From NCBI RefSeq assembly GCF_005696695.1, contig NZ_CP040006.1, positions 360,001 through 392,000 on the forward strand: DNA of 32,000 bases. Reading direction: 5' to 3'. The position numbers and the translations under genes were made by a program. The notes below the pieces were generated by a model that saw only the letters and a program-made list of their open reading frames with translations, was not told the origin of the DNA and searched no databases. How positions within the stretch are numbered: position 1 is the stretch's first letter; every line of letters starts with the position of its first letter. This DNA is from Schaalia odontolytica. GTDB lineage: Bacteria > Actinomycetota > Actinomycetes > Actinomycetales > Actinomycetaceae. This document shows, piece by piece, positions 10,852 to 32,000 of this stretch.

Positions 10852-11772
10852 GTGGCTGACCAGCGTAAGAATTCCCCCAGGCGACCCTCGTCCCGTCGCT
10901 CCGCGTCCGCATCCGGACGCGCCGGCGACCGCGCCTCCCGAGCCGCAACGGGCGGTCGGGGAGCCTCGACGCGCGCGGCGTCTTCCGCCGGCGCCTCGAC
11001 GGCTAAGCGGGGGAGCGGGGCAGGAGTGCGTCGGCCCAAGAAGGCCTCATCGGGTGGCGGTCGTCCGCCCGTGAATCTGTGGCCCCGACGCATCATCACC
11101 GGCCTGGGCCTGCTCCTCATCATCGCGCTCATCGTGTGGGGCATCGTCGCCGCCGTGCGCGCCATCGCGGGAGCCTTCAGCGCCGATCCTGCGCCCCAGT
11201 CGACCCCGCAGTCCGTCGTCCAGTCCGGGGCCCTCGATGCCTCCGGCTACACGCTCAAGGGCGGCCAGGAGGCCACCGCCGATGGCCTGCTCACCGACGG
11301 CACCGCGATCGACATTCCCGCCTGCCTGGACCGCGACATCACGGCCACCGCGAAGGCGAGCCCCGTGGCCTCCGGCTCGGCAATGCCCGTGACGCTCACG
11401 CTGGAAAACCGCGGCTCGGTCGCCTGCTCGACGTCGCTGACGCGCTTCAACCTGGCGGTGACGACCGGCGACCACCAGGTCTACGACTCCTCGCGATGCG
11501 CCGACAGCCAGCAGTCATCCACGACGCTACTGCTGCGCCCGGGCGGCACCTGGTCCGGCGCGCTGCGCTGGGACGGATACGTGTACACGAACGGCTGTAC
11601 GGCTCCGGCGGGCGGGGCGAGTGCGGCCGCGGCCGGCACCTACAAGGTGGCCGTCACGATGGGCACGCGCGAAGTCGGCTCAACCGTCGTCGACGTGACG
11701 CCGGCGCCCACCCCCGCGCCCCAGTCGGGAGCACAGTCGGGCGCCCAGTCCGGCGCACAGTCGGGCCGCTAA
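10852..11772 (+). CDS. Membrane-anchored hypothetical protein with a basic N-tail, one TM segment and a Cys-containing extracytoplasmic beta-rich domain
   Basis: GTG 10852. The N-terminus is Arg/Ser-rich and the TM segment is IITGLGLLLIIALIVWGIVAAV. The domain has paired Cys residues (PACLDRD...SVACSTS...SSRCADS...TNGCTA). The C-terminal repeat is QSGA x3 plus QSGR. TATCGT at 10840-10845 lies 6 nt upstream of the GTG, which would fit a leaderless transcript (speculative). Confidence 0.6.
   Translation: MADQRKNSPRRPSSRRSASASGRAGDRASRAATGGRGASTRAASSAGASTAKRGSGAGVRRPKKASSGGGRPPVNLWPRRIITGLGLLLIIALIVWGIVAAVRAIAGAFSADPAPQSTPQSVVQSGALDASGYTLKGGQEATADGLLTDGTAIDIPACLDRDITATAKASPVASGSAMPVTLTLENRGSVACSTSLTRFNLAVTTGDHQVYDSSRCADSQQSSTTLLLRPGGTWSGALRWDGYVYTNGCTAPAGGASAAAAGTYKVAVTMGTREVGSTVVDVTPAPTPAPQSGAQSGAQSGAQSGR
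11722..11769 (+). repeat. Four tandem copies of a 12-nt unit (CAGTCGGGNGCN) encoding QSGA/QSGR at the C-terminus
   Basis: cagtcgggagca / cagtcgggcgcc / cagtccggcgca / cagtcgggccgc, read directly from the sequence immediately before the TAA at 11770. Confidence 0.85.
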
Positions 11773-14286: not shown

Positions 14287-14465
14287 GCACTCACCGTAAC
14301 CCGGCCCGCCCTCATCTGCGGTTCCCGCGCGCGGGTGGGTACCGTGACCCCGGCATCGGGAGAGCGGACCCGAGACCCGCCCCGGCCTCGTCGACGAGGT
14401 GCGATAGCCTAAATGCGCGACTGTGGTCAGGTTCTCGCGCGTGCGGAATGGCCATACAACGCCGC

Positions 14466-14481
14466 ACGAACCCCCGTTCGA
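14466..14481. promoter_or_regulatory. LexA (SOS) box-like palindrome ACGAAC-CCCC-GTTCGA
   Basis: The core CGAAC-N4-GTTCG matches perfectly the Gram-positive/actinobacterial LexA operator consensus TCGAAC-N4-GTTCGA, with one flank mismatch. It lies in the 344-bp divergent region, 180 nt from the radA ATG and 150 nt from the giant-gene ATG. Confidence 0.55.
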
Positions 14482-14630
14482 CAGGTTGCAGATTCCTCGG
14501 TACCTGTTGTTGTCTGCGGGGTTTATCCATAGGGTTGGTCGGTGTGTATCCTTGGGATGGTTGCCCATACCCTCCGCGGATACAGACAACGCCCCACACC
14601 AGTGCGCACATTGAGACTGAGGAAAGCCAC

Positions 14631-20600: not shown

Positions 20601-20672
20601 GCAACGCGGGCGGATTCCGAGGCGGCGTTCGCGCAGAAGGTGCGCGTCGGCGATTGTCGCCCGGTGAGGTGA
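14631..20672 (+). CDS. Giant (2013 aa) membrane-anchored surface protein: N-terminal signal-anchor, domain of unknown fold of about 380 aa, about 11 cadherin-like/Ig-like repeats, about 5 fibronectin type III domains, and a Cys-containing C-terminal module
   Basis: ATG 14631 follows GAGGAAAG. The N-terminus is MNKARRSRNTWSKR followed by the TM segment IPALAVLLVSAMLCVLAVVY. The recurring repeat signature is xxDDxxxVxxGxxxxIxVLxNDxDPDGDxLxV (e.g. PVLDNDSDDDGDVL, PIANDTDPNGDPL, PLANDTDPSGGVL, NVLSNDLDADGDAL, VLVNDEDPDG). FN3 signatures include PEPPQNVKAT...GYTVT...GLTNGAKHRFTVVATNEAGDS and LDVTWAEP...ISGLKNGALYSVRIQAQN. Confidence 0.9.
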   Translation: MNKARRSRNTWSKRIPALAVLLVSAMLCVLAVVYRGVEVTQVSVDDGGIWVTNQDRKLLGHLNYDALMLDGTVSVKSASFDIGQEGGDVTLGETVSRTVTPVRPTSFSLGQSVTLPDNAVQVQGGSVLAVLDPNEGLLWVGSANEPATMSLLREDAVANDLSDGIVTVSNSGTVFAYSPGSSKLVTLTREGQAWRAKTTEIKDFTPAGTPTITAVGDKPVVYDQTGNKLVLPGGKVRDLSEEHVSGAVLQIPGDEAASVLLATGDQLVSVPLNGKAIERQEASESGQKGTPAAPVFHRGCSYGAWAGSGAFVRTCTDSSRNQAQTVPSLAEASSAVFRTNRTRIVLNDVSTGTLWLPDKNMVVVSNWDQTPTEEQEEEDTPTPDQREQVSEPEHKDKNTPPEAVDDEFGIRPGRSTLLPVLDNDSDDDGDVLTARAVTNPEFGSIVRTRGGRALQITDVPENMTSGSTSFTYEASDGLAGATANVTLTIHPWSQNEGPRQLKHPVIKVGANAQVEYNLLSDWIDPDGDQFYLVSATAPEGMAVQFSEDGTVQIQDLGSGAGVKAIAVTLSDGHAETTGELKVSVQEAGNVPPVARADFYVARVAEPLTIDPIANDTDPNGDPLSLVAAGTPPAGTSVSADLSRGTLTFTGSVPGSFQFTYTVSDGPSTTVGVIRVDVVDDDTNALPIAEDDLAVLPSGGASLIAPLANDTDPSGGVLVVQSIDVPANSGLEVTLIERHLLRITSPGGLTDVTTFTYTVSNGAGSATAQVSVIPTNAQSEETPPQVTADTAKVRADDIGSVSVLSNDRSPIGLSLSLDPEVEVLSGAELGTVFVTGNQVRLAAGSEAGVVRVAYTAIDSVGNRATTTVTFEIIASSAANSAPVPKALSAWAVQGQMTRIPVPLTGIDPDGDSVALVGIDQPPAKGSVVLGTEWLEYTPSDDATGTDTFSYIVEDRLGVQGRARVRVGIAPPGSQNHNPTAVPDSVTVRPGREVSINVLSNDLDADGDALYVDTDPQTVSVSDPAATVTMAEDLVTVKAPATNGVFVVAYQIEDGRGGRAQGQLTVTVDADAPLRAPIARDDVVPVSDLPSDSKPVSVAVLVNDEDPDGTTAALTVSSDASGVSVSGQNLSISPDARRRLVVYTVTDPDGLSASAVVTVPGTDLLAPRLDTTRVPVAMRAGSTLTLDMRDYVLVRDNSRSPIITDASSVKFSGGLDSASLQDSTHITLSAPDTASGKASVSFTVRDGASDDASALTSTLTIPITIQPARNLPPRLTPTPILVGQGESVTVDLTQMVDDPDDQAKGSFEYRVVKAPGGVDVSLDGYNLTVSGKKDQPKGPVGAITVSVDDGSGAVNADIPVTIVKSSKPLVTTTEARIKAKAGQTVDVNLSEYTTNPFPEPLVVLDASVHVGQGTASGNGNVLSVTPKAGFHGDMIVVYRVMDATNDPDRVVQGRVVVKVLDRPEPPQNVKATAMGSQTAFVQFDEPASNGGTISGYTVTDLLDGRTYNTTKPGTQIKGLTNGAKHRFTVVATNEAGDSDPSAPSAEVNVDVEPDQMAAPTVVGSDGALDVTWAEPHNEGSKIQTYTVFLYPESGGQPIPYTAAGTDRKMTISGLKNGALYSVRIQAQNDADKPSLLSEATGAHPHGAPDQPTDVRAVAVTADKDPNLATVEVSWTPGRSGGTDFGSTHVMVGDKPVTAPAGARSVQVPLVPTGRDKQVSVELTNTDGDTSAKGYTTVSIATTPAPIADPTLSGTGKAGQLKVTGLSVVTGRGFEASDLTLRYSADPNSCASGQRVDDGDILPANGWESKTYYFCQTGIGVNNQPAASPVASATGTATGRPSDVGVRFTGVNSTSLTVQWDPVGANPAVTEVRVSLNNGATQTVRGGVNTATFSDLAQGTRYQATVVAVNGLGETVMSEQPTETTKLDVNLTWTEACQGGEKYGSPGGCHTFTFSAPGWADTSLTHKCTISSDLDGWTEELTITGAGPTPSKIATRADSEAAFAQKVRVGDCRPVR
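15828..19010 (+). repeat. Tandem array of about 11 cadherin-like / bacterial Ig-like domains (about 95-100 aa each) inside the giant CDS
   Basis: The (L/I)xND(T/S/L/E)DPDGD calcium-binding-like motif and its preceding PxAxxD segment recur by eye at roughly 290-nt spacing. The copies are divergent at DNA level. Confidence 0.7.
19011..20400 (+). repeat. Array of about 5 fibronectin type III domains inside the giant CDS
   Basis: Five segments of about 90 aa show FN3-like W/Y/L core positions (VQFDEP, VTWAEP, VSWTPG, LTVQWDP). The boundaries are approximate. Confidence 0.65.
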
Positions 20673-20676
20673 GCCA

Positions 20677-21912
20677 GTGAAGAAACTACGTCGACTTGTG
20701 AGGCATGCGTGGCGCGCCCTGAGCGCCCGCGTGCAGGCGCTGCCCGGATACGAGGGCGTCGCCCGCTGGCTGGGCGCGCTGACCCCGGTGGGGTGGGCGG
20801 TGATCGCGGCGATGGTTGCGGGAACCGTCGCGGCCCTCGCCTTCGGCTGGCTGGAGGGCTTCATCGTGGCCGTCATGGGCCTGGTGGCCCTCGTGGTCGC
20901 GGTGGCCTCGGTCGCGTCCCCGTCCCCGCTGTCCGTGTCCCTGCGCATGAAGAACGACCGCATTGTCGCCGGCCAGGTGGCGGTGGGCCGCGTTCGCGTG
21001 GTCAACGAGTCCGGGCGCCGCTCGGGTTCGACCCTCGTGGAGGTGACGATCGGACGAGGCAGTGGCGAGTTCCTCGTACCCCCGATCAGCGGAAACGGCA
21101 CCTGGAACGAGTCCTTCTCGGTCATGACGAAGCGCCGCGGCGTCATCAACGTGGGCCCGGCGCGCACCGTGCGCATGGACGGCCTGGGCCTGCTGCGCCG
21201 CGTGCGTTCGTGGGATGACCCGATCCTCGTGCACGTGCACCCGCCGACGGTGCGTTTCTCCTTTGACGCGACGGGCATGCAGATGGACGTCGAGGGTGTG
21301 GCCAGCGAGAAGCTGACGAGCTCCGACGTGTCCTTCCACGCCCTGCGCGACTACGAGCCGGGCGACGACCGCCGCGCGGTGCACTGGCCGTCGACGGCGC
21401 GTTTTGGCCGCCTGATCGTGCGTCAGTTCGAAGAGACTCACCGCTCGCACCACATGGTGCTGTTGGATACGCGCGTGGACGCGTGGGATCGGCGCTCGTT
21501 TGAGACGGCCGTGTCGGTTGCCGCGTCGCTGGCGCTCGCCGGCTCGGGCGAGGCCCGCACGGTGTCGATGCACACCGCGGACGAGTGGATCCCCACGGGC
21601 TCGCCCATGGCGATGCTGGATGCGCTGTCCGAGATGGAGACGTCGACGCGCTCTGAGTTTGCGGGCATCGTGCGCCGCTGCATCATGGAGCGCGGCGGGA
21701 TCTCGGTGCTCTCGATCGTCGTCGGCGCTGGCGTGGACGACGAGGAGGCGGCTCGCCTGGCGAACATCGCTCCTGTCGACGTCATCGTGTCGGTGATCCG
21801 CGTGGTCCCGGGCCGGGCACGTCGCCGCCGCAAGATCACGCGCGGCGTCATCATCGACTGCCCCTCCCTCGAAGACCTGCCGATGCTCGTGTCCCGGGGG
21901 GTGAACGCGTGA
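20677..21912 (+). CDS. DUF58 domain-containing membrane protein (degenerate vWA fold; usual partner of MoxR ATPases)
   Basis: GTG lies 4 nt after the giant-gene stop. There are two N-terminal TM helices. The DUF58 signature is FHALRDYEPGDDRRAVHWPSTARFGRLIVRQFEE. Confidence 0.85.
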   Translation: MKKLRRLVRHAWRALSARVQALPGYEGVARWLGALTPVGWAVIAAMVAGTVAALAFGWLEGFIVAVMGLVALVVAVASVASPSPLSVSLRMKNDRIVAGQVAVGRVRVVNESGRRSGSTLVEVTIGRGSGEFLVPPISGNGTWNESFSVMTKRRGVINVGPARTVRMDGLGLLRRVRSWDDPILVHVHPPTVRFSFDATGMQMDVEGVASEKLTSSDVSFHALRDYEPGDDRRAVHWPSTARFGRLIVRQFEETHRSHHMVLLDTRVDAWDRRSFETAVSVAASLALAGSGEARTVSMHTADEWIPTGSPMAMLDALSEMETSTRSEFAGIVRRCIMERGGISVLSIVVGAGVDDEEAARLANIAPVDVIVSVIRVVPGRARRRRKITRGVIIDCPSLEDLPMLVSRGVNA

Positions 21913-24464
21913 GTACTCCTGCTCGCAACGCCTCGCGTCCGGCACCTCCGCCGCGTCGCTCCCGTCGCCCCGTCGCCCAGGAAACCACGATGGGTGGGTC
22001 GATCCACCGCGCCGCCATGCCCGCGTGGTCCCTGCTCATCCTCGCGGTCCTCTTCTCCGGTCCGATCCTTATGTTCGAGTCCGTCTTCGGCGGCGGCCAG
22101 GGCGCGATTGCGGCGCTCGCGGGCGTCGTGGTCGGCCTCGTGGTCGCGTGGGCGGCCGCCAAGTGGCGCTGGGACCTGCTCTCGATCGTCGCGGCGGTTG
22201 TGGCCTCGCACTTCCTCTTCGGTGGCGTTGCCGCGCTGCGTGAGACGACCCGCTGGGGCGTGGTCCCGACGTCGCGGACCCTCCAGACGCTGGTCGTCGG
22301 TTCGGTCGAGGCCTGGAAGGACCTCCTGACGCTGACGCCGCCGGCCGGCTCCTACGTGGGGCCCGCGATGGTGCCGTGGATGGCCTGCCTCGTGTGTTCG
22401 GTTGCGGCGGGCGTCGTGACGGTGCGCTACGGGCGTCCGATGTGGGGATCTGTGCCGCTGATCCTCGCCGGCGTGATCGCGATCGTGTGGGGGCCGTCGG
22501 GCCACTCCCCGTCCGCCCTCCTCGTCATCGCGTGGTGGGTGGGACTCATCGTGTGGTGGGCGTGGGCCTCGGCGATCGGACGCGCACGACTGGGCGCCGA
22601 CATCGTCATTGGTATGGCCTCTACGGCGACTACCGCGTCGACGACCGTGGGCGGTTCCTCGCGCCAGATCGTGCACGTGTGGTGGCGCGTGGGCATGGGC
22701 GCGCTCATGGTGGGCGTCATGGTTGCTGCGGCGATCCCTGCGGCGTCCCTGCTGGGCCCCACGGCCTCGGACCGCGTCGTCGGACGCGACGTCGTCGAGC
22801 CGCCCGTGGACGCGCGCCAGTACCCCTCGCCGCTGTCCAGCTACCGCCACTACAACAAGGACCTCGAGGATGAATCCCTGATCCGCGTGTCCAACATGCC
22901 CAAGGAGGCGCGCGTGCGCCTGGGCGCGATGGACGTGTACGACGGGACGACCTTCGGCATGGGCGTCACGAATACCGCGGACGGCACGGCCGGATACCGC
23001 CGCGTGGGGTCCACGATCCCGGGGCGCAGCGCCGATACGGCGGGCGTGCAGACCTCGGTGTCGACCTCGCAGCTGCTGGGACCGTGGGTGCCCACGATCG
23101 GCCAGGTGTCGGTCCTTCGCTTTGAGCCCTCCGCCCCCAACGCGGCCGAGCAGCAGGACGGCCTGAACTATGACCTGTGGGCGGATACCGCCCTGACGAC
23201 GGGCCCGACCGGCCAGCTGAGCTACTCGCTGAGCACGACGATGCCGCGCGAACACGCGGACTCGGAGTTCGCCAGCGTGAACGCGGCGCGCTACGCCGGG
23301 GGCGACACGAACGTCCCGAAGGACGTGGACTCCCTGGCCGCGGATCACACGTCGACCGCGCGCTCGGACCTGGAGAAGGCCCGCGCGATCGAGCAGTTCC
23401 TGCACACGGATGGCTACTACTCCAACGAGGACACGATCAATTCGCGTCCCGGCTCCTCCCAGGACCGCATCGAGCGCATGATCAGCGCCGAGGCGCTGGT
23501 GGGCGACGACGAGCAGTACGCGACCCTCATGGCCCTCATGCTGCACTCGCAGGGCATTAACGCCCGCGTCGTGATGGGCGCCTACCGCGAGGGCACGTCC
23601 GGCAGCGTCGACCTGACGGGTTCGGACATGCACGCGTGGGTCGAGGTGGAGTTCCCCGGCGTTGGCTGGGCGACCTTCGACCCGACTCCGCCGCGCGATC
23701 AGCAGCCCACGACGCAGGTCAACAAGCCTAAGTCCGTGCCCAAGCCCCAGGTCCTGCAGCCCCCGGAGCCGCCCGAGCAGCCGGTCGAGCTGCCGCCCGC
23801 GACCCGCGACCAGGCGACGGATCCGCATGATCCGAACGGCGTCCACATCCCGTGGATGGCGATCGGCACGGTGTCGGTGTCGCTCCTCCTGCTGCTGGGC
23901 CCGGTCCTGGCGGTGCTCCTGGCGAAGTCTCGCCGCCGCAAGAGCCGCCGCCGCGCGCAGGCCGCCGAGTCGGTGCGCGGCTCGTGGGACGAGCTCGTGG
24001 ATACCGCGATCGACTCCGGCCTCGTCGTCGAGCCGCACCTGACGCGCCAGGAGGTCGCGTGGGCGCTGGCCTCGCAGTGGACGCCCAAGAAGTCCGAGAG
24101 TGACGAGGAGGGGGACGCCAAGGCCCGCAAGGCGCGCAAGCGCTCGGCTGCGGACGTGCGCGTGCCCGGCTGGTCGCTGTTCTCGGGCGCGGTTCCCCGG
24201 GCCGTCACCGTGGCGCGCCGCGCGGACGTCGCGGACTTCGCTGCCGGCGGTGCCCGCCCCGAGGACGCGGAGCAGGCGTGGAACGACGTGGATGAGCTGC
24301 GTCGCGAGTGGGCGGCCTCGGTGTCGCCGTTCGCGCGAGCGCGTTACGCGCTGTCGCTGAAGTCGCTGCGCTGGCGCCGTCGCGCCCGCCGCCAGGCTGA
24401 CGCCGCTCGCAAGGGTGGTCGCTCGCTGGCCAAGCGCATGGGCCGTAGGAAAGGGAAACGTTGA
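21909..24464 (+). CDS. TgpA-like polytopic membrane protein with a transglutaminase-core fold (Cys position occupied by Asp) and a basic cytoplasmic C-terminal tail
   Basis: GTGA overlap with the DUF58 stop. About 6 N-terminal TM helices. The core segment is GDDEQYATLMALMLHSQGINARVVMGAY...DMHAWVEVEFPGVGWATFDPTP. A late TM segment IPWMAIGTVSVSLLLLLGPVLAVLLA is followed by an Arg-rich tail. Confidence 0.85.
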   Translation: MSTPARNASRPAPPPRRSRRPVAQETTMGGSIHRAAMPAWSLLILAVLFSGPILMFESVFGGGQGAIAALAGVVVGLVVAWAAAKWRWDLLSIVAAVVASHFLFGGVAALRETTRWGVVPTSRTLQTLVVGSVEAWKDLLTLTPPAGSYVGPAMVPWMACLVCSVAAGVVTVRYGRPMWGSVPLILAGVIAIVWGPSGHSPSALLVIAWWVGLIVWWAWASAIGRARLGADIVIGMASTATTASTTVGGSSRQIVHVWWRVGMGALMVGVMVAAAIPAASLLGPTASDRVVGRDVVEPPVDARQYPSPLSSYRHYNKDLEDESLIRVSNMPKEARVRLGAMDVYDGTTFGMGVTNTADGTAGYRRVGSTIPGRSADTAGVQTSVSTSQLLGPWVPTIGQVSVLRFEPSAPNAAEQQDGLNYDLWADTALTTGPTGQLSYSLSTTMPREHADSEFASVNAARYAGGDTNVPKDVDSLAADHTSTARSDLEKARAIEQFLHTDGYYSNEDTINSRPGSSQDRIERMISAEALVGDDEQYATLMALMLHSQGINARVVMGAYREGTSGSVDLTGSDMHAWVEVEFPGVGWATFDPTPPRDQQPTTQVNKPKSVPKPQVLQPPEPPEQPVELPPATRDQATDPHDPNGVHIPWMAIGTVSVSLLLLLGPVLAVLLAKSRRRKSRRRAQAAESVRGSWDELVDTAIDSGLVVEPHLTRQEVAWALASQWTPKKSESDEEGDAKARKARKRSAADVRVPGWSLFSGAVPRAVTVARRADVADFAAGGARPEDAEQAWNDVDELRREWAASVSPFARARYALSLKSLRWRRRARRQADAARKGGRSLAKRMGRRKGKR

Positions 24465-25981
24465 TGGATAGCGACGCTCGCGTCGGAATGGTGCCGTCGC
24501 TGCCGGGTTACGAGTGGATTCGTCCGCTCGGGTCGGGTGGTTTCGCGGACGTGTTCCTGTGCCGCCAGGAGCTGCCCAGCCGTGAGGTGGCCGTCAAGGT
24601 GGCGCGCAGGGATCGTGGGGCGGACGGCGAGGCCGGTATCGCCCGCGAGGCCGACGTGATGGCTCTCGTGTCGGGTCACCCGGCGGTGGCCCAGCTGTAC
24701 GGCGCGGGGCGCACGCCGGATGGTCGCCCGTACCTGGTGATGGAGTACTGCCCGGTCGCGAACATCCTCGATCAGGTGCGCGCAAACCCGATGTCGACGG
24801 ATCGCGCGCTGTCGATGGTGATCCGCATGTGCGGTGGTGCTGAGATGCTGCACCGCGCGGGCTACGTGCACCGGGATATTAAGCCCAGCAACATCATGAT
24901 CAACGCCTTCGGGTCGCCGGTGCTCACCGACTTCGGCGTGTCCGAGCCGGTGGGTGCGGACCCGCGCGGCGGCCGCGACGGCTTCTCGGTGATGTGGGCG
25001 CCGCCCGAGCAGATCGCGGGCACGGCGCGAGCTCACCCGACGCAGGACGTGTGGGCACTGGGCGCGACCCTGTGGACGCTTCTCATGGGCCGCTCGCCCT
25101 TCGAGGTGGAGGACGGGGATAACTCGGCCCACGCGGTCGCCCAGCGCGTCGCCCGTGGCCGCGTGTCGCGCATCGACCGCCCGGGCGTGCCCGACGCTGT
25201 GACGGCCATCGTGCGCCGCGCGATGAGCCTGGACCCGGAGCAGCGCTTCGGGTCGGCGGCAGCCCTCGGCTACGCGCTGCAGACGGTCGAGCGAGAGATG
25301 CACCGCCCGGTCACGGAGATGAAGCTGAGCGTGGTGGCCTCCTCGAGCGCGCCCTCCTCGGCCCTGTCTGCCCCGTCTGCGGCGGCCCTGGACGCGGAGC
25401 GTACGCGCACCCGCCGCGGGAGTTTCGCGGACGGTCCCCAGGCCTCGTCGAACGAGGCGTGGGCCGGTAACTCGACGACGAACCGAACCGGGTTGGTTGA
25501 GGGGCAGTCGAAGCGCCCCGCGTGGGTGGTGCCGGTCCTGGCGCTCGTGATGGTGCTGGCGACGGCCGGCCTGGTGGTCGCGATGCTCACCGGCGGCGGA
25601 CACAGCATCCACCTGGGCGGAGGCGGTGGCGGCGTATCCACGCCGACTCCCTCCTCGAGCGCGGGGACAGTGAGCAACTCCGATCAGGGCGACGCGGGCG
25701 CCGTCCCGCCCGAGGCCGTGACCGGGTTGACGGCCACCCCGAACGGCAACGAGATCCGCTGGGGCTGGGAGGTGCCCGAGCAGGGCCAGTACCAGCCCGG
25801 AGCGCTCGAATTCAAGTACGTGCTCACCCGTCCGGGCGAGGCTGTGGTGGCCGAGACGATGCGCCGCAACAGCCTGACGACGACCGCGGTGAGCGGCGAG
25901 AACTGTCTGACCGTGAGCCTCGTTGTGACCTCCACGGGCCGCGAGTCCGCGCCGGTCACCCAGTGCGTGACGGTGCCGTAG
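24464..25981 (+). CDS. Transmembrane Ser/Thr protein kinase (Hanks type) with an FN3-like extracellular domain
   Basis: ATG 24464 (TTG 24461 also in frame) overlaps the upstream TGA. Motifs: Gly-loop LGSGGFADV, VAVK lysine, HRDIKPSN, DFG, WAPPE. The TM segment is AWVVPVLALVMVLATAGLVVAML. The C-terminal 100 aa (PEAVTGLTATPNGNEIRWGWEVP...LTVSLVVTSTGRES) are FN3-like. Confidence 0.9.
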   Translation: MDSDARVGMVPSLPGYEWIRPLGSGGFADVFLCRQELPSREVAVKVARRDRGADGEAGIAREADVMALVSGHPAVAQLYGAGRTPDGRPYLVMEYCPVANILDQVRANPMSTDRALSMVIRMCGGAEMLHRAGYVHRDIKPSNIMINAFGSPVLTDFGVSEPVGADPRGGRDGFSVMWAPPEQIAGTARAHPTQDVWALGATLWTLLMGRSPFEVEDGDNSAHAVAQRVARGRVSRIDRPGVPDAVTAIVRRAMSLDPEQRFGSAAALGYALQTVEREMHRPVTEMKLSVVASSSAPSSALSAPSAAALDAERTRTRRGSFADGPQASSNEAWAGNSTTNRTGLVEGQSKRPAWVVPVLALVMVLATAGLVVAMLTGGGHSIHLGGGGGGVSTPTPSSSAGTVSNSDQGDAGAVPPEAVTGLTATPNGNEIRWGWEVPEQGQYQPGALEFKYVLTRPGEAVVAETMRRNSLTTTAVSGENCLTVSLVVTSTGRESAPVTQCVTVP

Positions 25982-26083
25982 GGCGCTGGCGTCATGCACT
26001 TTCGTGACTGGCTCGACGGCGCATGACCGAGTGGTAGACTGCTGTGTTGCGCGCCGTCGGAGCGCGTGGCGAAAGGAAGTGTG

Positions 26084-27292
26084 ATGAGGCGCGACATTGC
26101 CCGAACGATACGGCGCGGCACGGGGGTTGCCCTGGCGGGCACGCTTGCCGTTGCAGCCCTCGTGGTTCCTGCGGCCCCAGCATCGGCGGATGCCACGATC
26201 ACGGCGAACGAACAGACCTTCTACGGCTACTACCGCTTGGACGCAATCCACTCGTCAGGCTACACGGGCGAAGGCGTGACGATCGCGCTCGTTGACGGCC
26301 CCATCAACACGCAGATCCCTGAGCTAGCCGGTGCGCGCATCCAGTCCTACAGCCCATGCGCCGTGGACTCCCAAGACAAGTCCTGGGACCACGGCACCGT
26401 CATCGCGCAGGTGATTTCCTCGCCTCAGTTTGGCGTGGCCCCCGGCGCGAATCTACGCGCCTACACATTGTCATTTGCCGGTGAGACGACGGGTTCCGAC
26501 TGTGCGCTCGGGCAGTGGGGGCGAGGCTACTCCGACCTCGCTCTCCTCATCGAGGACGCGCTTAACGACGGCGTCGACGTGATCACGACGTCGTCGAGCT
26601 ACCCCAGCGATTACGAGGGCATGCGCTGGGCTCTCGCCCGAGCGATTGCGTCTAAGGTTCCGGTTGTCGCCTGCGTGGGGAACGACTCGACCAGTAACTC
26701 GACGGATTGGCTGCCCGCCTGGGGTGGCGTCGTCGGCGTGGGCGCGATCGAGACCAACGGTCGCCCCTCCGACTACCAGAACTGGGGAAGGCCCCTGTCG
26801 ACGGCGGCCCTCGCGCGCCCTCTCGCCCGCTCGGGCGTGTCTCAGGAACGGGGCGAGTGGTGGGGGACGTCCTTCGCGAGCCCCGTCGTGGCTGGCTCCC
26901 TGGCACTGTCCATGCAGCGCTGGCCTCGCGCGACCGGCAACCAGATCATGCAGGGCCTGGCCCGCACCGGCGTGGGCGGCAACGGCGGCGAATGGAACCA
27001 ATACACGGGGTACGGTGCGCTCGACATCTACGCGATGCTGACGACGAACCCGACGAGTTTCCCGGATGAAAACCCGTTCATGGACAAGGGAACGAACACG
27101 GTTCCCAGCCGCCAGGACGTGCAGGACTACATCGACGGCGTGGTGGATCCGCGCGTCGTCATGAACGACAACTCCTACGAATACCTAGGGTTCGACGAGC
27201 GTCTCGCACTCAGCCGCGATCATGACTATCCGACGCACCTGGGCACCAGCCCCCGCTACCACCAGAAGTTCCAGTCTCAGAAAAAGAACTAA
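26084..27292 (+). CDS. Secreted S8 family serine peptidase (subtilase), paralog 1
   Basis: ATG 26084 follows GCGAAAGGAAG. The signal peptide is RRGTGVALAGTLAVAALVVPAAPASA/DA. The triad contexts are TIALVDGP (Asp), WDHGTVIAQ (His), VGND (oxyanion Asn) and GTSFASPVVAG (Ser). An extension of about 95 aa at the C-terminus ends YPTHLGTSPRYHQKFQSQKKN. Confidence 0.85.
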   Translation: MRRDIARTIRRGTGVALAGTLAVAALVVPAAPASADATITANEQTFYGYYRLDAIHSSGYTGEGVTIALVDGPINTQIPELAGARIQSYSPCAVDSQDKSWDHGTVIAQVISSPQFGVAPGANLRAYTLSFAGETTGSDCALGQWGRGYSDLALLIEDALNDGVDVITTSSSYPSDYEGMRWALARAIASKVPVVACVGNDSTSNSTDWLPAWGGVVGVGAIETNGRPSDYQNWGRPLSTAALARPLARSGVSQERGEWWGTSFASPVVAGSLALSMQRWPRATGNQIMQGLARTGVGGNGGEWNQYTGYGALDIYAMLTTNPTSFPDENPFMDKGTNTVPSRQDVQDYIDGVVDPRVVMNDNSYEYLGFDERLALSRDHDYPTHLGTSPRYHQKFQSQKKN

Positions 27293-27333
27293 CGCTCGCG
27301 GGCGCCCCATTGCGCGCAGCGAAAGGACAGCTG

Positions 27334-28548
27334 ATGAGTCATCTGATGACACGCCTGGCGAGACGCGGTGCCGGCCTGGGAGCCGCCTGCGCGCTCGCGG
27401 GCGCGGTCCTCGTGTTCCCCGCAGCCCCGGCCCAGGCCTCGCGCGCGCCGATCACGTCGGATGAGCAGGACTACTACTCCTACTACTACCTGGGGCAGCT
27501 CCACGCGTCGGGTTACACCGGCAGGGGCGTGACGATTGGCCTGCTGGACGGCCCGGTCAACACGAACATCCCGGAGCTGCAGGGCGCGAACATCCAGTAC
27601 ATGAGCCGCTGCGACGTGGAGTCCAGCGAGGACAGCTGGGAGCACGGCACGGTCATCGCCCAGATGATCTCAGCACCGGAGTTTGGGATCGCCCCCGAGG
27701 CGAGGCTCAACCGCTACACGGTGTCGCTGAAAGGCGATACGCCGAGCAGGGATTGTGCGATCGGCTGGTGGGATGACGGATACTCTGATACGTCGGTTCT
27801 CATTGAGCTGGCGCTCAACGACGGGGTGGACGTGATCACGATGTCCTCGTCGTACAGCGCCGACACTGAGAGTATGCGCTGGGCGTTGGCTCGCGCGATC
27901 ACGCAGAAGGTGCCCGTCGTGGCCCCTCTCGGCAATGAGTCGGAGTACAACCCGTCCACGTCGCTCGCGCGCATGACCGGCGTGGTGGGGGCGTCGTCGG
28001 TGTACCCCGATGGGTCGCTGACCTCGTATTCGAACTATGGGGACTTCGTGTCGGCGGCGTCCGTGTCGCGTCCGTACGCGAGGAGCGGCATCACGTGGGA
28101 GACCGGGTATTGGCAGGGGACGTCGTTCGCGTCTCCGACGATCGCATCCTTCTTGGCGTTGGCGAAGCAGAGCTGGCCCGAGGCGACGGGTAATCAGCTC
28201 CTGCAGGCCCTGGCCCGCACGGGGATCGGCGGCAACGGTGGGTACTGGAACCCGTACACGGGGTACGGGGCGGTGGACCCATACGTGCTGCTGACGACGA
28301 ATCCGACCCAGTTCCCGGACGAGAACCCGTTCTTGAACAAGGGCTATGAGTCCATTCCGACCCAGCGTGACATCGCGGACTACGCGGACGGCCTGGTGGA
28401 TCCGAGGCGCATCAACGCAGATGATTCCTACCAGTATCGGGGCTTCGACGAGCGTCTCACCCTGAGCCACGAGCACGGCTACCCGACGCACCTGGGGACC
28501 AGCCCGCGCTTCCACGCGAGCAATGCGAGCAACGCGAAGAAGAAGTAG
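27334..28548 (+). CDS. Secreted S8 family serine peptidase (subtilase), paralog 2 (tandem duplicate of paralog 1)
   Basis: ATG 27334 follows GCGAAAGGACAG, the same RBS context as paralog 1. The signal is ARRGAGLGAACALAGAVLVFPAAPAQA/SR. Motifs: IGLLDGP, WEHGTVIAQ, LGNE, GTSFASPTIAS. The C-terminus is YPTHLGTSPRFHASNASNAKKK. It is collinear with paralog 1 along its whole length. Confidence 0.85.
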   Translation: MSHLMTRLARRGAGLGAACALAGAVLVFPAAPAQASRAPITSDEQDYYSYYYLGQLHASGYTGRGVTIGLLDGPVNTNIPELQGANIQYMSRCDVESSEDSWEHGTVIAQMISAPEFGIAPEARLNRYTVSLKGDTPSRDCAIGWWDDGYSDTSVLIELALNDGVDVITMSSSYSADTESMRWALARAITQKVPVVAPLGNESEYNPSTSLARMTGVVGASSVYPDGSLTSYSNYGDFVSAASVSRPYARSGITWETGYWQGTSFASPTIASFLALAKQSWPEATGNQLLQALARTGIGGNGGYWNPYTGYGAVDPYVLLTTNPTQFPDENPFLNKGYESIPTQRDIADYADGLVDPRRINADDSYQYRGFDERLTLSHEHGYPTHLGTSPRFHASNASNAKKK

Positions 28549-28567
28549 CGCGTAGGGAAGCGCCCCT

Positions 28568-28609
28568 GTCGCCCACGGTACGGTGGGTGGCAGGGGCGCT
28601 GCGCTGTGT
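28568..28609. terminator. Strong GC-rich hairpin between convergent S8 genes (bidirectional terminator candidate)
   Basis: AGCGCCCCTGTCGCCCAC (28568-28585) / GTGGGTGGCAGGGGCGCT (28592-28609). This gives 10 bp + 5 bp of pairing around a 3-nt internal mismatch, with a 6-nt loop. It lies between the stops at 28548 (+) and 28623 (-). Confidence 0.6.
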
Positions 28610-28622
28610 CGGGTTGCCGATG

Positions 28623-29864
28623 TTACTTCCGGTGGTAGCGGGGGCTCGTTCCCAGGTGGATCTCATTCTTTAGCTCCGACTGGTAGAGGATGACCTGATC
28701 GTCGGCGCCTCGGTACACGTAGGAATCGGGAAGCAGTGTGGTTTCAATGGGATTAATGAGTCCATCGGTGTAGTCAGCGACCTTGTCAGCCGTGGGCTCG
28801 GAACCACCCGGCTTCTGGATGATTGGGTTCTCATCCGGATACTGCGAAGGATCCGTATTGACCAGTGCGCCACCGTCAATCGCTCCATACCCGGTGTATT
28901 GCGTCCACTCGTGGTTGGGATTCAAGCTGGTGTGAACCAGGGCTTGAAGGATCTGGTTGGTGGTGGCGTTAGGCCACTTCTGGCGTGCCAGGGCGAGCAT
29001 TCCCGAGACGAGCGCGGTCGCGTTGGACGTGCCTGATGTGGTTGTGGGTGCTCCGGTGTTCGCGTCGACGGTGTTGATGGGGCCGCCGAACGCGGCGGTA
29101 ACAACGCCGTTTCCCCAGGAGGAGTAGGACGCGAAGGTGCCGTCACTGTTGATGGCGGACACGCCGACCACGCCGGACCAGCGGATCAGCTGCTCAATGC
29201 TGTTGTCGCTTGCCGTGTTGCCGGCGGATGCGACGATGATGACGCCTTCGCTCATCGCGCGGGTGAGAGCCCACTGAAATTCCGAATCACTTACTGGGGT
29301 GCCCTGAGAGATAGAGATGATCTGGGCGCCGTCATCGATGGCCTGGTTGATGAGGGTCCCCAGGGTATCGGTCAGGAGCCCGTCGGATACGCATGTGCCT
29401 GACGACACAGACTCAGCGTTGGAGAACTGGTAGCTGTACAGCGTGGCGTCGGGGGCTACACCCGTGTAAGGGGATACGAGCAAGGTTGCCATCGTGGTGG
29501 CGTGGCGAATGCCCCTTGGGGAGTCTTCGATGGTGCAGCGGCTCTTGTCGGTGATGTTGGCGCCGGCTAGTTCGGGGGCGCTGGTGTCGACTGGTCCGTC
29601 GATGAGGGCGATGGTGACGCCCTTGCCCGTGTAGCCCTTTTGGCGTGCAGAGTCCAGATGGTAGTACGAGAAGTACTCCTGGGTGGTGATGGGGTCCGCC
29701 GCGTGCGTGGGCGCCGGAGCCAGGGTGAGGGCCCCGGCTGCCAGCGCAAGCGCCGAGGCGGCGGTGGTCAGGGCGCGCGCGGCGCGCCCCGCCCTCCCCA
29801 CAAAACCGAAGGGAGAACGGGGCGCGGCGTTGGAACGAATGCTCACCACTGGCGCGGGTCCCAT
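28623..29864 (-). CDS. Secreted S8 family serine peptidase (subtilase), divergent paralog 3
   Basis: Same architecture as paralogs 1 and 2: ALIDGP (Asp), IRHATTMAT (His), AGNT (Asn), SGTSNATALVSG (Ser), conserved PDENP and a C-terminal HLGTSPRYHRK. The signal is ...ALALAAGALTLAPAPTHA/AD. ATG 29864 overlaps the upstream gene by 22 nt. Alternatively, GTG 29846 overlaps its stop as GTGA. Confidence 0.85.
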   Translation of the reverse strand: MGPAPVVSIRSNAAPRSPFGFVGRAGRAARALTTAASALALAAGALTLAPAPTHAADPITTQEYFSYYHLDSARQKGYTGKGVTIALIDGPVDTSAPELAGANITDKSRCTIEDSPRGIRHATTMATLLVSPYTGVAPDATLYSYQFSNAESVSSGTCVSDGLLTDTLGTLINQAIDDGAQIISISQGTPVSDSEFQWALTRAMSEGVIIVASAGNTASDNSIEQLIRWSGVVGVSAINSDGTFASYSSWGNGVVTAAFGGPINTVDANTGAPTTTSGTSNATALVSGMLALARQKWPNATTNQILQALVHTSLNPNHEWTQYTGYGAIDGGALVNTDPSQYPDENPIIQKPGGSEPTADKVADYTDGLINPIETTLLPDSYVYRGADDQVILYQSELKNEIHLGTSPRYHRK

Positions 29865-31540
29865 CCGTCATCGTTACGCTTCGCCGGCGCGATGTCCTTG
29901 TCCGTGCCGGAGGTCTGCGACAGGGGATTCACGTAGCCCGCGGGCAGCTCGTCCTCGTCGTCGTCGAACTTGAAGGCCACGTACCGGTTCTTACGTCCCT
30001 TCTTGTCGTCCTTGCCGGCGCCAGCACCCGCACCCGCGCCGGCCCCCATGAAGCCGCCGGAGCCTGCGCCGCCCTTGCCAGCAGCGCCGGCCGCGCCGGA
30101 TGCGCCGCCGCCGTTCGCGCCCGTGGTGCCCGTGACGCCCGAGGAACCGGCGGCACCGTTCGCGCCGCCGGCGCCGGCCGCGCCCGCAGAGCCGGCGGGA
30201 GGAGTGTAGGAGCCGAAGCCGGAACCCGAGTAGGAGCCGACCTTCAGGCCGGCCGCGCTCGCGCCACCCAGACCGCTGGTCGAGCCGGTCACGCCGCGCA
30301 TGCCCGCGGCGCCCATGCGACCGGCGCCGGACATACCACCGGCCGAACCGGAACCGCCGAGGCCGTTCGCACCCGCACCGGATCCGCCGAAGCGGCCGAG
30401 GGCGCTGGAACCGGCGCCGGCGCCACCGAAGCGACCGAAGACGCTGGAGCCGCCGAGGGAACCGGTTCCGCCGAAGCTGCCCGAACCCATGCGGGCCGCG
30501 CCGCGCAGGCCGAGCGCGCCTGCACCGAGGACACCCGCGCCGCCGAGGCGACCGGCCGTGGCGGAGTCGGAAGCTGCGCCTCCGTTCAGGCGCCACAGCG
30601 GGTGATGTGCGTCGGCCGGGGGTGCGGGGGTATGACCGCCGACGACGCCGTTACGGTACGCCGTGCCGTTTGCGGGGGTGTGGAGGAGGTCTGTGCCCAT
30701 GAGCTCCTGAGGATCAGTGATCGGGTTCGTCCGCGACCCAAGCTCGCCATAGGCGGGTTCCTGAGTGGGAATAGCGCCGGAAGCGACCGTGCGATTCTGG
30801 GCAGCGGCGGCGTCCGCCTCGCTCCACCACGGCTGGGCAAAACCACCCGGATAGTTCGCTGAGCTGGGACTTCTGTCGGCGGCGCGTCCAAAGCTATCGT
30901 CCAGACTTGGGGCCGACGTCGCTTGCTTGCCTGCGATAACGCCGACATCGATCGGGTCATTTGCGTGGCCTTGCACTTTATCTCGCAGTGCAGCCTGCTG
31001 CCTCATGAGCGCCGCGATGTTGCTCGTCCGCTGGTTCACCATCGAGAGGACGCGCTGCGCGGCAGCCTCGCGCTGGGCGTTCGCCTGTGCCTCGACCGCG
31101 TCCACGTAGGCGGCGCCGGTCGTGAAGCGTTTGCCCAGCACAGAAACGCCGCCTCCGGGTGAGGAGCTAGGAACCATAACGACGGGGTTGTCACGCATGG
31201 CCTCCGTGGCAGAGTCCAGAAGGGTCGGAGAGATCATCTCAGCTTCCTTCAGCGCTGTTGCCATCGTGGATCGACCGGCCTCGTAGCTCGTGTGTCCTGC
31301 CTCGTAGATCGACCGGACCATATTGATGCGGTGAAGCGATTCAGCTACCCACTGGGTCATCGCATCGGCGGTAGCGCCCTGAAAGCCCTGACTGTCGCTG
31401 TAACGCGTTAGTCGCTCGGTCGCTTCCTTGAAGCCTTTCAGCGTCTTCTTGTGGTCGGTATCCCATGCGTCCAGGTCGCGGTTGGTTCGGGCAGCCTCCA
31501 TGAAGACCTTGAGGCGCTCGTACATCGGTGACGAAACCAT
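29843..31540 (-). CDS. Hypothetical 565-aa protein with a helical WXG/LXG-like N-domain, a Pro/aromatic linker, a Gly-rich low-complexity region of about 190 aa, and a charged C-terminus ending DDGWDPRQW
   Basis: ATG 31540 follows AAAAGGGAAA. The N-terminal 190 aa or so have strongly helical composition, with SDSQGFQGATADAMTQWV resembling the WxG-AAxAf turn of WXG100/LXG domains. Residues 319-509 are G/A/S-rich (GRFGGAGAGSSALGRFGGSGAGANGLGGSGSAGG...). No N-terminal Sec signal or TM segment is evident. Confidence 0.8.
   Translation of the reverse strand: MVSSPMYERLKVFMEAARTNRDLDAWDTDHKKTLKGFKEATERLTRYSDSQGFQGATADAMTQWVAESLHRINMVRSIYEAGHTSYEAGRSTMATALKEAEMISPTLLDSATEAMRDNPVVMVPSSSPGGGVSVLGKRFTTGAAYVDAVEAQANAQREAAAQRVLSMVNQRTSNIAALMRQQAALRDKVQGHANDPIDVGVIAGKQATSAPSLDDSFGRAADRSPSSANYPGGFAQPWWSEADAAAAQNRTVASGAIPTQEPAYGELGSRTNPITDPQELMGTDLLHTPANGTAYRNGVVGGHTPAPPADAHHPLWRLNGGAASDSATAGRLGGAGVLGAGALGLRGAARMGSGSFGGTGSLGGSSVFGRFGGAGAGSSALGRFGGSGAGANGLGGSGSAGGMSGAGRMGAAGMRGVTGSTSGLGGASAAGLKVGSYSGSGFGSYTPPAGSAGAAGAGGANGAAGSSGVTGTTGANGGGASGAAGAAGKGGAGSGGFMGAGAGAGAGAGKDDKKGRKNRYVAFKFDDDEDELPAGYVNPLSQTSGTDKDIAPAKRNDDGWDPRQW
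30014..30586 (-). repeat. Low-complexity Gly/Ala/Ser-rich coding region (degenerate GGN-GCN repeats)
   Basis: The DNA is dominated by GCC/GGC/ACC-type triplets on the plus strand. It translates to G-rich repeats on the minus strand and produces spurious Pro/Ala-rich ORFs on the plus strand. Confidence 0.8.
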
Positions 31541-31567
31541 GATTAATTTCCCTTTTCTTATGAAGGC

Positions 31568-31990
31568 CTAGTATTCGCTTGGAGCCGAAGTGGCGGTTGA
31601 ACCACTCGTGGATCCGGATGACGATCCACCGCTCGACGCGTGAGGAAGTCCGCCGTTCATGAGTAGTGATCCGCCTAGGGAACTTGCCACGGCACCAGCC
31701 GTGCTCGAGGCGGTGGACACGCCGAAAACCTTTGAGAACTTACCGATCGATGCCTTCAAAGCCACGGCAGCGTCGGACTTGGCGACACGGTCGAGAGCCT
31801 GATTAATTTTCTCAATCCGCGCCTTGTTTTCGTGCTCCGTTCCCGTGAAGCTCGACAGTGCCGCATTGATCTCGGCCTCGAACGTGCTGATCAGGGCCGC
31901 TTCGTTTTTCAGGAGCTCAGATACTGCGTTAAACATTTCGGTAGAGCTGTCCTGCACGGAACGTGGACCCGTCTCATGCCCCCAAAACAT
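31568..31990 (-). CDS. Small helical-hairpin protein with a Ser/Gly-rich tail (WXG100-like in size and layout; family unassigned)
   Basis: 140-aa ORF (122 aa if the start is ATG 31936, MFNAVSELL...). It has two predicted long helices separated by SSFTGTEH (F-x-G at the turn), then a tail GGLPHASSGGSSSGSTSGSTATSAPSEY. It ends 27 nt upstream of the Gly-rich gene. The upstream context is cut by the window end. Confidence 0.6.
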   Translation of the reverse strand: MFWGHETGPRSVQDSSTEMFNAVSELLKNEAALISTFEAEINAALSSFTGTEHENKARIEKINQALDRVAKSDAAVALKASIGKFSKVFGVSTASSTAGAVASSLGGSLLMNGGLPHASSGGSSSGSTSGSTATSAPSEY

Positions 31991-32000
31991 GCTCTTCTGA

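Follow-up and report, generated by a model that had tools for sequence, protein, structure and literature searches.

Anchor-less S8 peptidase genes linked to a putative AesB effector gene in the Esx locus of Schaalia odontolytica XH001

The subject of this study is a cluster of five genes at positions 26084 to 32000 of a 32,000-nucleotide (nt) stretch of Schaalia odontolytica DNA (NCBI RefSeq assembly GCF_005696695.1, contig NZ_CP040006.1, positions 360,001 to 392,000 of the forward strand; the whole stretch is referred to as the window). Three of these genes encode subtilisin-like peptidases of family S8, designated S8-A, S8-B, and S8-C. The other two encode a 565-amino-acid (aa) protein with a glycine-rich region and a small helical protein, which were identified as orthologues of AesB and AesA, substrates of the Esx-type type VII secretion system (T7SS). 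Compared with contig LLVT01000001.1 of strain XH001 (GCA_001462375.1), the window showed no mismatch over the 12,158 nt compared. XH001, classified as Actinomyces (now Schaalia) odontolyticus subsp. actinosynbacter, hosts the Saccharibacterium TM7x (PMC4742689) and serves as the model host of this first cultured Saccharibacterium. The five genes were called from profiles of GC content at third codon positions (GC3) and from open reading frame (ORF) calls.

The closest described system is that of S. odontolytica F0309, whose Esx system is induced by the Saccharibacterium TM7-008 and limits the proliferation of TM7-008 (Wang et al., bioRxiv 9 September 2026; PMC13622651, called the preprint below). 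Secretion of EsxA, EsxB, AesA, and AesB in F0309 depends on eccC. Secretion of AesA requires AesB and vice versa; the two proteins co-immunoprecipitate and were modelled as a helical heterodimer like PE/PPE, EspB, or TelA-LapA3-LapA4. AesB proteins of this class begin with an alpha-helical bundle of ~110-180 aa in which an FxG turn separates helices; in F0309, a disordered Gly-rich region of ~160 aa and a charged region of 56 residues follow, the latter containing a GYVNP motif needed for function, and the restriction of the epibiont is lost when aesA or aesB alone is deleted (PMC13622651). Export of AesA/B additionally needs, at the post-translational level, the adjoining Esr2 cluster, made up of genes for a surface filament, for MoxR and vWA proteins, and for a transglutaminase, a kinase, and an FHA protein. 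The mechanism of AesB was left as an open question, with the disordered tail proposed as a docking region, and several AesB-like paralogues were reported elsewhere in the genome, each with a small helical neighbour (PMC13622651). The locus tags of the preprint are inconsistent, EsxA/B being given as 329-330 and as 330-331.

XH001 belongs to the same species group as F0309, and its pair has the same architecture, including the 56-residue tail and GYVNP; it likewise lies inside an Esx cluster and beside an Esr2-type sensing cluster. The AesA/AesB pair and its secretion context have thus already been described for this sister strain. What the XH001 analysis adds is a 22-nt overlap between aesB and an S8 gene, tandem S8 arrays, the co-diversification of S8 and AesB, a central motif in AesB, and an [FY]xxx[DE] motif in AesA. 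Relative to the published literature surveyed, the obligate, overlapping, and co-diversifying link to anchor-less subtilases is new. A protease acting on a T7SS substrate has a precedent in mycobacterial ESX-1, where MycP1 processes EspB. Mycosin-like peptidases have also been noted beside actinobacterial toxins that combine a WXG domain, a Gly linker, and Ntox38 (Zhang et al. 2012, PMC3482391). We lean, without great assurance, towards reading positions 26084-32000 as the effector end of the single Esx locus of XH001 and the anchor-less S8 peptidases as dedicated extracytoplasmic partners of AesB.

The effector pair and the overlapping peptidase gene

The features of the cluster are as follows.

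26084-27292, plus strand: S8-A, 402 aa from the called start (the longest ORF begins at 26066), an anchor-less secreted subtilisin-like peptidase
27334-28548, plus strand: S8-B, 404 aa, a tandem paralogue of S8-A, anchor-less
28559-28600, no strand assigned: hairpin, perfect over 18 bp, GC-rich, between the convergent S8-B and S8-C
28623-29864, minus strand: S8-C, 413 aa, an anchor-less secreted subtilisin-like peptidase coupled to aesB
29843-29864, minus strand: dual-coding overlap of 22 nt, read as ..G W D P R Q W stop in aesB and as ATG GGA CCC GCG CCA GTG GTG in S8-C
29843-31540, minus strand: aesB orthologue, 565 aa, with a helical N-terminal targeting domain, a central motif, a Gly-rich region, and a charged tail
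29846-30013, minus strand: charged C-terminal tail of AesB, aa 510-565, 56 residues, 23% acidic and 20% basic, ending ..DDGWDPRQW
29924-29938, minus strand: GYVNP, aa 535-539, inside the charged tail
30014-30583, minus strand: Gly/Ala/Ser-rich region of AesB, aa 320-509, 39% G and 22% A, predicted to be disordered
30590-30739, minus strand: conserved central motif of AesB, aa 268-317, GSRTNPITDPQELMGTDLLHTPANGTAYRNGVVGGHTPAPPADAHHPLWR
31376-31384, minus strand: FQG turn of AesB, aa 53-55, between two long helices, the FxG counterpart of WxG/LxG motifs
31568-32000, minus strand: aesA orthologue, 185 aa as a full gene, which extends 125 nt past 32000
31835-31849, minus strand: FTGTE (FxxxE) motif of the aesA orthologue

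The 565-aa protein was identified as the AesB orthologue because its architecture matches that of the F0309 protein, with FQG at residues 53-55, GYVNP at residues 535-539, and a tail that is exactly 56 residues long. Neither a signal peptide nor a transmembrane (TM) segment was found in it. The 185-aa protein upstream, which has a WG turn, the FTGTE motif, a Ser/Gly-rich tail, and a C-terminal ..SEY, was likewise identified as the AesA orthologue. A preliminary description of the window, made from the letters and the ORF list, had already noted three S8 paralogues of about 400 aa, two in tandem and one convergent, and a 565-aa protein with no signal, a helical N-domain with an FQG turn, a Gly-rich region, and a charged tail; all three peptidase genes proved intact with Pfam Peptidase_S8 matches, and the features of the 565-aa protein were found as described. 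The small helical protein that it placed before the 565-aa gene exists as well, but its size was misjudged, the ORF at 31568-31990 being cut by the window end.

As for the coupling of S8-C to the 565-aa gene, which had also been proposed, the overlap could be read directly: the ATG of S8-C (29864) lies inside the last codons of aesB, whose stop occupies 29843-29845. The N-terminus of S8-C (MGPAPVV) and the end of AesB (..GWDPRQW) therefore share 22 nt in two frames. This dual-coding constraint, and not AesB function, may account for part of the conservation seen in the C-terminal motif of AesB.

The AesB family was surveyed by a scan of one genome per species, in which 65 loci were recovered and flanks of up to 10 kb per side were fetched around the cassettes. 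The survey pattern, GSRx[NK]PITDP, limits these loci to the Schaalia/Pauljensenia clade, and all 65 fall in the Schaalia/Pauljensenia/oral 'Actinomyces' group, with 1-6 loci per sampled genome. An S8 gene of the same subfamily follows within 600 nt on the same strand in every one of the 61 aesB genes with an intact stop, and in 55 of the 61 the first start codon of this S8 ORF overlaps the aesB stop by 22 nt. The coupling holds inside the Esx locus and also at remote sites with no ecc gene detectable in the fetched flanks, where the cassette consists of an aesA-like gene, an aesB-like gene, and then S8 (L031-L057). One such remote cassette (L042) adjoins a gene read as a putative phosphotransferase system (PTS) permease. 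A locus carries 1-5 S8 genes, some of these counts including the kinase-side S8-A/B or a second cassette, and a single overlapping copy is the commonest arrangement (28 of the 55 loci with S8 matches). Whole cassettes are tandemly duplicated in some genomes (L027 and L030).

Moreover, AesB and the adjacent S8 protein have diverged together. Pairwise identities among AesB proteins (29-100%) and among their adjacent S8 proteins (46-99%) were correlated with r = 0.87, a value reached by none of 999 Mantel permutations; the aesB-S8 pair evolves as a unit. Beyond the survey clade, five lineages with AesB-like proteins at 26-30% identity were each sampled singly, and in three of the five an anchor-less S8 gene overlaps the AesB-like gene on its downstream side and encodes the same ..LGTSPRY.. 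ending.

The AesB family is small: 92 clusters at 50% identity were found at E <= 1e-3 among 1.84 billion representatives. The close named homologues are from Schaalia or Actinomyces, with one labelled Mycobacteroides abscessus, and those at 79-100% identity bear Schaalia names. In the family alignment, the helical N-terminal region contains a turn G-[FLMV]-x-G-x-[TA], of which G55 is near-invariant, and a QANAxRE helix; the Gly/Ala-rich stretch varies in length, and the tail is basic and then acidic, ending ..DDxW. The most conserved stretch of the family is the central motif, with the consensus GSRxNPITDPxxLxxxDLLHTPxNxRMxxDGPVGG..P..DPxW, which sits between the helical domain and the Gly-rich region and holds most of the invariant or near-invariant columns. 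This motif goes undiscussed in the preprint text that was consulted (PMC13622651). In the AlphaFold2 (AF2) model of the 565-aa protein, helices are predicted at residues 5-20, 24-49, 56-101, and 142-193 with predicted local distance difference test (pLDDT) values of 75-93. The helical N-domain (1-193) and the central motif (pLDDT ~85-90) are modelled with confidence, while residue 320 onward is predicted to be disordered, with pLDDT ~30 in the Gly-rich region.

The AesA side of the cassette is conserved as well. Every AesB homologue is preceded by a small ORF, which ends shortly before the start of the AesB-type gene and encodes a conserved WG turn followed by [FY]xxx[DE], which is FTGTE in XH001 and FERTD, FKSTD, or YEETD in distant lineages. 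The C-terminus of the AesA family is usually acidic and then ends in a hydrophobic residue. In this motif there is a similarity to two export signals, YxxxD/E and the FxxxD of Lap1.

The two helical proteins were compared with known families of T7SS substrates. Neither of them matched any Pfam or NCBIfam model, including the WXG100 models PF06013 and TIGR03930. Among 21 AesB-family members, no match at E <= 1 was obtained with Pfam PE, PPE, WXG100, or LXG, and no match to any Pfam model was found. A plain sequence search of the 565-aa protein against PDB returned no match. The profile search gave 8gmh_B, an LXG domain (8GMH), as its single best match at a borderline E of 0.014, and this alignment places the FxG (fsG) turn of AesB on the LTG of the LXG domain. 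Foldseek, run with the full-length AesB model, returned generic helical bundles (best E = 0.067, none significant), with PE/PPE 2G38 in 37th place (E = 1.6) and the LXG complex unlisted. Foldseek is weak on elongated helical hairpins, and this null result was not counted against a T7SS-substrate fold. As for the WXG/LXG-like character ascribed to the turn in the preliminary description, the Pfam WXG100 and LXG models do not match, and the borderline 8GMH match falls in the register of the motif.

Like TelA-LapA3-LapA4 of the Firmicutes T7SSb (8GMH), the Schaalia cassette has a small helical partner gene upstream of a larger effector gene, a hydrophobic-x-Gly turn in the effector N-domain, and an FxxxD-type acidic export motif in the partner. 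It differs in having one partner instead of two and a machine of T7SSa type (EccB/C/D, MycP), and AesB has no recognisable toxin domain and no immunity gene. With the Ntox38 toxins (PMC3482391), AesB shares a WXG-like N-domain, a Gly-rich linker, a small conserved C-terminal module, the presence of several paralogues per genome, and a mycosin-like subtilisin gene that is often nearby. However, the 33-43 aa C-terminal domain with PXhhG was not seen in AesB when the alignment was inspected, no Ntox38 model having been searched; the AesB tail instead ends in an acidic stretch and Trp and carries GYVNP. In addition, no Imm56 neighbour was seen, the downstream gene in the aligned AesB cassettes always being S8. 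The likeness to PE/PPE and PE_PGRS proteins lies in the small and larger helical T7SS substrates forming a heterodimer, the larger of which has a Gly-rich C-terminal extension. The turn of AesB is FxG instead of WxG, and the protein has no PE/PPE Pfam match and no GGAGGX array; only short and weak DNA repeats were found in the Gly-rich region. The PE_PGRS-like label of the preliminary description is accordingly reduced to a resemblance. The name 'PPE family domain' on one UniRef AesB homologue is an automatic label. As for the WXG100 family, a true WXG100 pair lies elsewhere in the locus, and AesA/AesB do not match it.

Anchor-less peptidases at one end of the Esx locus

Each of S8-A, S8-B, and S8-C matches Pfam Peptidase_S8 with an E of 1e-19 to 1e-28, and in the alignment the D/H/S triad and the oxyanion Asn are kept in all three. 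S8-B is 59% and S8-C 42% identical to S8-A. A Kyte-Doolittle scan found one N-terminal hydrophobic signal segment in each protein and no hydrophobic 19-residue window beyond it, so that no C-terminal TM helix is present, in agreement with the preliminary description, which had noted the lack of the mycosin anchor. The S8 proteins of the distant lineages likewise have no such window beyond the signal peptide. About 30 residues separate the signal region from the catalytic Asp, and no long propeptide is present. With catalytic residues and signal peptide in place, the peptidases look active. A C-terminal extension of ~90 aa is common to the three proteins (..TNPxxFPDENP..DYxDG..YxYRG..HLGTSPRYH; TDPSQYPDENP ... 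HLGTSPRYH in S8-C) and has no Pfam match.

The best NCBIfam match of all three peptidases is TIGR03921 (mycosin), with scores of 129.1, 108.9, and 153.7 bits for S8-A, S8-B, and S8-C, respectively, all below the cut-off of 278.75, and the matches reach model position ~305 of 353. The anchored mycosin of a relative, encoded next to eccB, scores 227 bits over model positions 3-349 and has a C-terminal TM helix. This protein was rebuilt from a related metagenome-assembled genome (MAG; L004) by joining two reading frames, and S8-C is ~25% identical to it over a 207-residue local alignment. By pairwise sequence, S8-C is equally close to subtilisin BPN' and to MycP1. With the S8-C structure model (mean pLDDT 51, from a 3-sequence alignment), the top 50 Foldseek matches were all of subtilisin BPN' type. 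A mycosin has been characterised as a tail-anchored extracellular protease (PMC10924467). Since S8-A, S8-B, and S8-C have no C-terminal TM anchor and score 109-154 bits against that cut-off, we class them not as mycosins proper but as a distinct soluble, multi-copy branch of T7SS-associated subtilases, as opposed to the single membrane-anchored mycosin of the machine.

The comparison with MycP1 and EspB shows both sides. Similar to MycP1, the Schaalia S8 peptidases are encoded at a T7SS locus, with a signal peptide and no classical propeptide, and near a substrate with a helical N-domain and a low-complexity C-terminus, which in EspB is trimmed outside the membrane. Different from MycP1, they have no anchor, fall short of the mycosin cut-off, and are present in a genome many times over, each copy being linked to a substrate gene of its own.

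S8-A and S8-B stand apart from S8-C in their surroundings. By called starts, S8-A follows the Ser/Thr kinase gene of the upstream Esr2-type cluster after 102 nt, and S8-B follows S8-A after 41 nt, on the same strand. Genes of S8-A or S8-B type follow the kinase gene on its strand in 11 loci, and they are not preceded by aesB. The hairpin at 28559-28600, folded with its flanks, has a free energy of -60.2 kcal/mol (z = -6.9), and none of 200 shuffled sequences folded as well; it is probably a bidirectional terminator. A consensus terminator scan missed it because it has no T-tract. The signal peptides of S8-A (..TIRRGTGVAL.., 26084-26150) and S8-B (..LARRGAGLGA.., 27334-27400) hold an RRG(T/A)G sequence, which could be a weak twin-arginine (Tat) motif; the signal peptide of S8-C has no paired arginines. 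Mycosins in general were found not to be Tat substrates in a Tat-substrate study (PMC10924467).

The cluster is one end of a conventional actinobacterial T7SS locus with its own anchored mycosin. Past position 32000, the XH001 locus, which was read up to eccD, continues with the rest of aesA, a lipoprotein gene, eccC, an EccD-like gene, an FHA-like gene, two WXG100 genes (esxA/B), and eccD. The eccC gene is located 0.8 kb past the window end, and its product exceeds both NCBIfam cut-offs, with 807 bits for EccCa and 764 bits for EccCb; both WXG100 genes are above their cut-off as well. For the eccB side, the reading comes from three related assemblies (L002, L003, and L004; GCA_015473165.1, GCA_015473185.1), which continue with eccB, the anchored mycosin gene mycP, a fourth anchor-less S8 gene, a YbaB-like gene, and two candidate substrate genes. 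The eccB product of these relatives scores 141 bits, just under the 154-bit cut-off. These assemblies are frameshift-ridden MAGs, in which eccC, eccD, eccB, and mycP are each split into several calls; because of this, homology searches with the EccD and EccB fragments gave short fragments only.

The preliminary description had stated that no ecc genes lie in the window, which is correct, but the window stops 0.8 kb before eccC. Its view of the cluster as type VII related is supported by the Esx genes directly past the window end, and that of the small and large helical proteins as a T7SS substrate pair by the F0309 orthologues, which are co-dependent Esx substrates (PMC13622651). Its suggestion of an orphan, non-canonical layout was abandoned in view of eccC, the EccD-like, FHA-like, WXG100, and eccD genes past 32000 and of eccB and the anchored mycosin in the relatives. 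With eccC at a distance of 0.8 kb and an EccD-like gene, a WXG100 pair, and eccD beyond it, the cluster is not an orphan.

Proposed roles of the peptidases

The S8 peptidases are most likely dedicated extracellular partners or processing proteases of AesB. We propose the following course. AesA and AesB would form a heterodimer through their N-terminal helices and be exported together by Esx, as the literature on F0309 indicates, and the exported pair would curb the growth of epibiotic Saccharibacteria (TM7) on the surface of the host, as reported for the same strain. The Gly-rich region and the GYVNP-bearing charged tail would be the functional end of AesB. Because of the 22-nt overlap, S8-C may be translated by ribosomes that have just terminated on aesB. 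It would then be exported separately by means of its own signal peptide and meet AesB outside the membrane, where it most likely would cleave AesB in the manner of MycP1 on EspB. By such a cut, the Gly-rich/charged effector part would be parted from AesA and the helical targeting domain, or else the effector would be activated or turned over. S8-A and S8-B, encoded after the Esr2 kinase and on its strand, may work for this effector too, or for the sensor module. The peptidase link offers a direct experimental route to the question of the AesB mechanism.

Several points weigh against this proposal. The processing of AesB by S8 is a supposition put forward by analogy. The words subtilisin, peptidase, mycosin, and MycP do not occur in the main text of the preprint (PMC13622651). 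Linkage and co-diversification follow from duplication as a unit and are no proof of an enzyme-substrate relation. Two of the five distant AesB-like genes (P0180 and P0213) have no adjacent S8 gene, and therefore the effector can exist without S8. S8-A and S8-B do not adjoin any aesB gene, and a tandem copy number of 1-5 is not obviously needed for simple maturation. The S8-C model, moreover, is too poor to judge the specificity pocket or the C-terminal extension.

A bolder form of the proposal is possible, although we would sooner expect it to fail than to hold: AesB effectors would work only as two-component units, each with its own Sec-exported, anchor-less subtilase made in fixed proportion by way of the 22-nt overlap, and the tandem, rapidly diverging S8 arrays would act as the variable 'teeth' in an arms race against Saccharibacteria. 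As part of this same idea, the protease would cut AesB and so free or activate the GYVNP tail, or it would ride AesB onto the epibiont surface. If true, this would be the first T7SS effector system dependent on a dedicated soluble protease family, and it would supply the missing mechanism for the restraint of epibionts by Actinomycetaceae.

Instead of acting on AesB, the S8 peptidases may be weapons or co-effectors that attack surface proteins of the epibiont or of neighbours, with AesB as a T7SS-delivered adaptor and not a substrate, whose central motif or GYVNP tail would recruit the protease through the C-terminal extension of S8. We consider this unlikely, if far from negligible. It would fit with the preprint, which found no mechanism for AesB and proposes docking by the tail (PMC13622651), with the conserved ~90-aa extension of S8 that contains no known domain, and with the arrays of 1-5 diversified S8 copies, which resemble an arms-race repertoire and not a housekeeping maturase; the variable tandem arrays fit somewhat better here than under processing. 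The binding of AesB to S8 is, however, a supposition. The strict 1:1 overlap with the first S8 gene fits a stoichiometric partner under either model, and the loss of restriction upon deletion of aesA or aesB does not separate the two.

For S8-A and S8-B alone, membership of the Esr2 sensing operon was considered; their task would then be the processing or release of EsrA2 or of some other component of the envelope. Their position on the kinase strand with gaps of 102 and 41 nt, the strong hairpin that parts them from S8-C, and the occurrence of such genes beside the kinase in 11 loci speak for it. Nevertheless, this arrangement appears improbable, as both share a subfamily with the AesB-coupled copies (42-59% identity and the same C-terminal extension) and are missing from S. 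meyeri, whose kinase gene has S8-C-type copies as its immediate neighbours (L025).

Very little can be said for the tandem S8 proteins as immunity factors that degrade AesB-type effectors on the producer or its kin, like the arrays found after LXG toxins, and we regard this as a very improbable role. The S8 genes do lie directly downstream of the effector gene in variable tandem copy number, as do the tsaI and esaG immunity arrays of Staphylococcus, which also vary in their number of tandem copies. Nevertheless, we know of no protease that serves as a T7SS immunity protein, and the commonest arrangement is a single overlapping copy (28/55). AesB is, furthermore, reported to act on epibionts, with no self-toxicity reported (PMC13622651).

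The idea of an orphan PE/PPE- or PE_PGRS-like substrate/protease module apart from canonical ESX, or of a wholly undescribed system, which could draw on the AesB-S8 cassettes that lie far from ecc genes (L031-L057), is refuted for this locus by its place inside the Esx locus and can otherwise be dismissed, since the genomes with distant cassettes also carry an Esx locus, no PE/PPE Pfam match exists, and Esx dependence was shown in the sister strain F0309.

The Esr2-type cluster and other neighbouring genes

The genes between 14448 and 25981, upstream of S8-A, were identified as a probable match to the Esr2 sensing cluster.

14448-20672, plus strand: EsrA2-like sensor gene (putative), encoding a 2074-aa surface protein with Pfam Big_9, cadherin-like, and fn3 repeats
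20677-21912, plus strand: DUF58 gene, a vWA-type Esr2 partner with a Pfam DUF58 match, syntenic beside the transglutaminase/kinase genes in many loci
21909-24464, plus strand: membrane transglutaminase gene (EsrD2-like), Pfam Transglut_core E = 2.9e-19, synteny conserved
24461-25981, plus strand: gene for a Ser/Thr kinase with a TM segment (EsrE2-like), Pfam Pkinase E = 6e-40, synteny conserved
8818-9360 of locus L001, past the window: lipoprotein gene, 180 aa, lipobox LSGC, 181 nt past the window end, precedes aesA

From a comparison of the gene order with that of the preprint (PMC13622651), the 2074-aa protein may be an EsrA2-like sensor. A further candidate member lies past the window end. 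The 486-aa product there has TM segments, a Pro-rich linker, and a weak FHA-like match at its C-terminus (E = 0.004), and was identified as probably EsrG2-like; a PF00498:FHA match is on record only for a 482-aa gene in a distant lineage (L070). Two EccD-type proteins are encoded in the locus (L001 3131-4567 and 1-631). One is a clear EccD with Pfam YukD and EccD matches, and the other is divergent, with 478 aa, a ubiquitin-like N-terminus, and ~11 TM segments, and adjoins the FHA-like gene.

The lipoprotein gene was found with the closer AesB paralogues, both in the Esx locus and in separate copies whose flanks showed no ecc gene (for example L008, L014, and L018), and went undetected in the cassettes with distant AesB paralogues (35-40% identity). 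Past the anchored mycosin and the fourth S8 gene, three proteins are encoded in the stretch 15118-17836 of L004. One is YbaB-like and has 127 aa; another, of 386 aa, has a helical N-terminus and ends in a charged coiled-coil tail; and the third, of 390 aa, matches WXG100 weakly (DWKGG). The preprint lists further candidate substrates at the end of its Esx cluster, to which these genes probably correspond.

Schaalia-like loci were also found in assemblies under other names, namely 'Sanguibacter keddieii 250_SKED' (L005, L039, and L046; NZ_JVOJ01...) and 'Xylanimonas cellulosilytica 352_XCEL' (L006, L015, L037, and L066; NZ_JVKM01...). The eccC, kinase, and transglutaminase proteins of these loci are 93-100% identical to those of XH001, and the two assemblies are almost certainly mislabelled Schaalia genomes. 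Elsewhere in the window, the interval between folK and disA holds an ORF of 306 aa (10852-11772) with a coding-like GC3 of 0.86 and no Pfam match.

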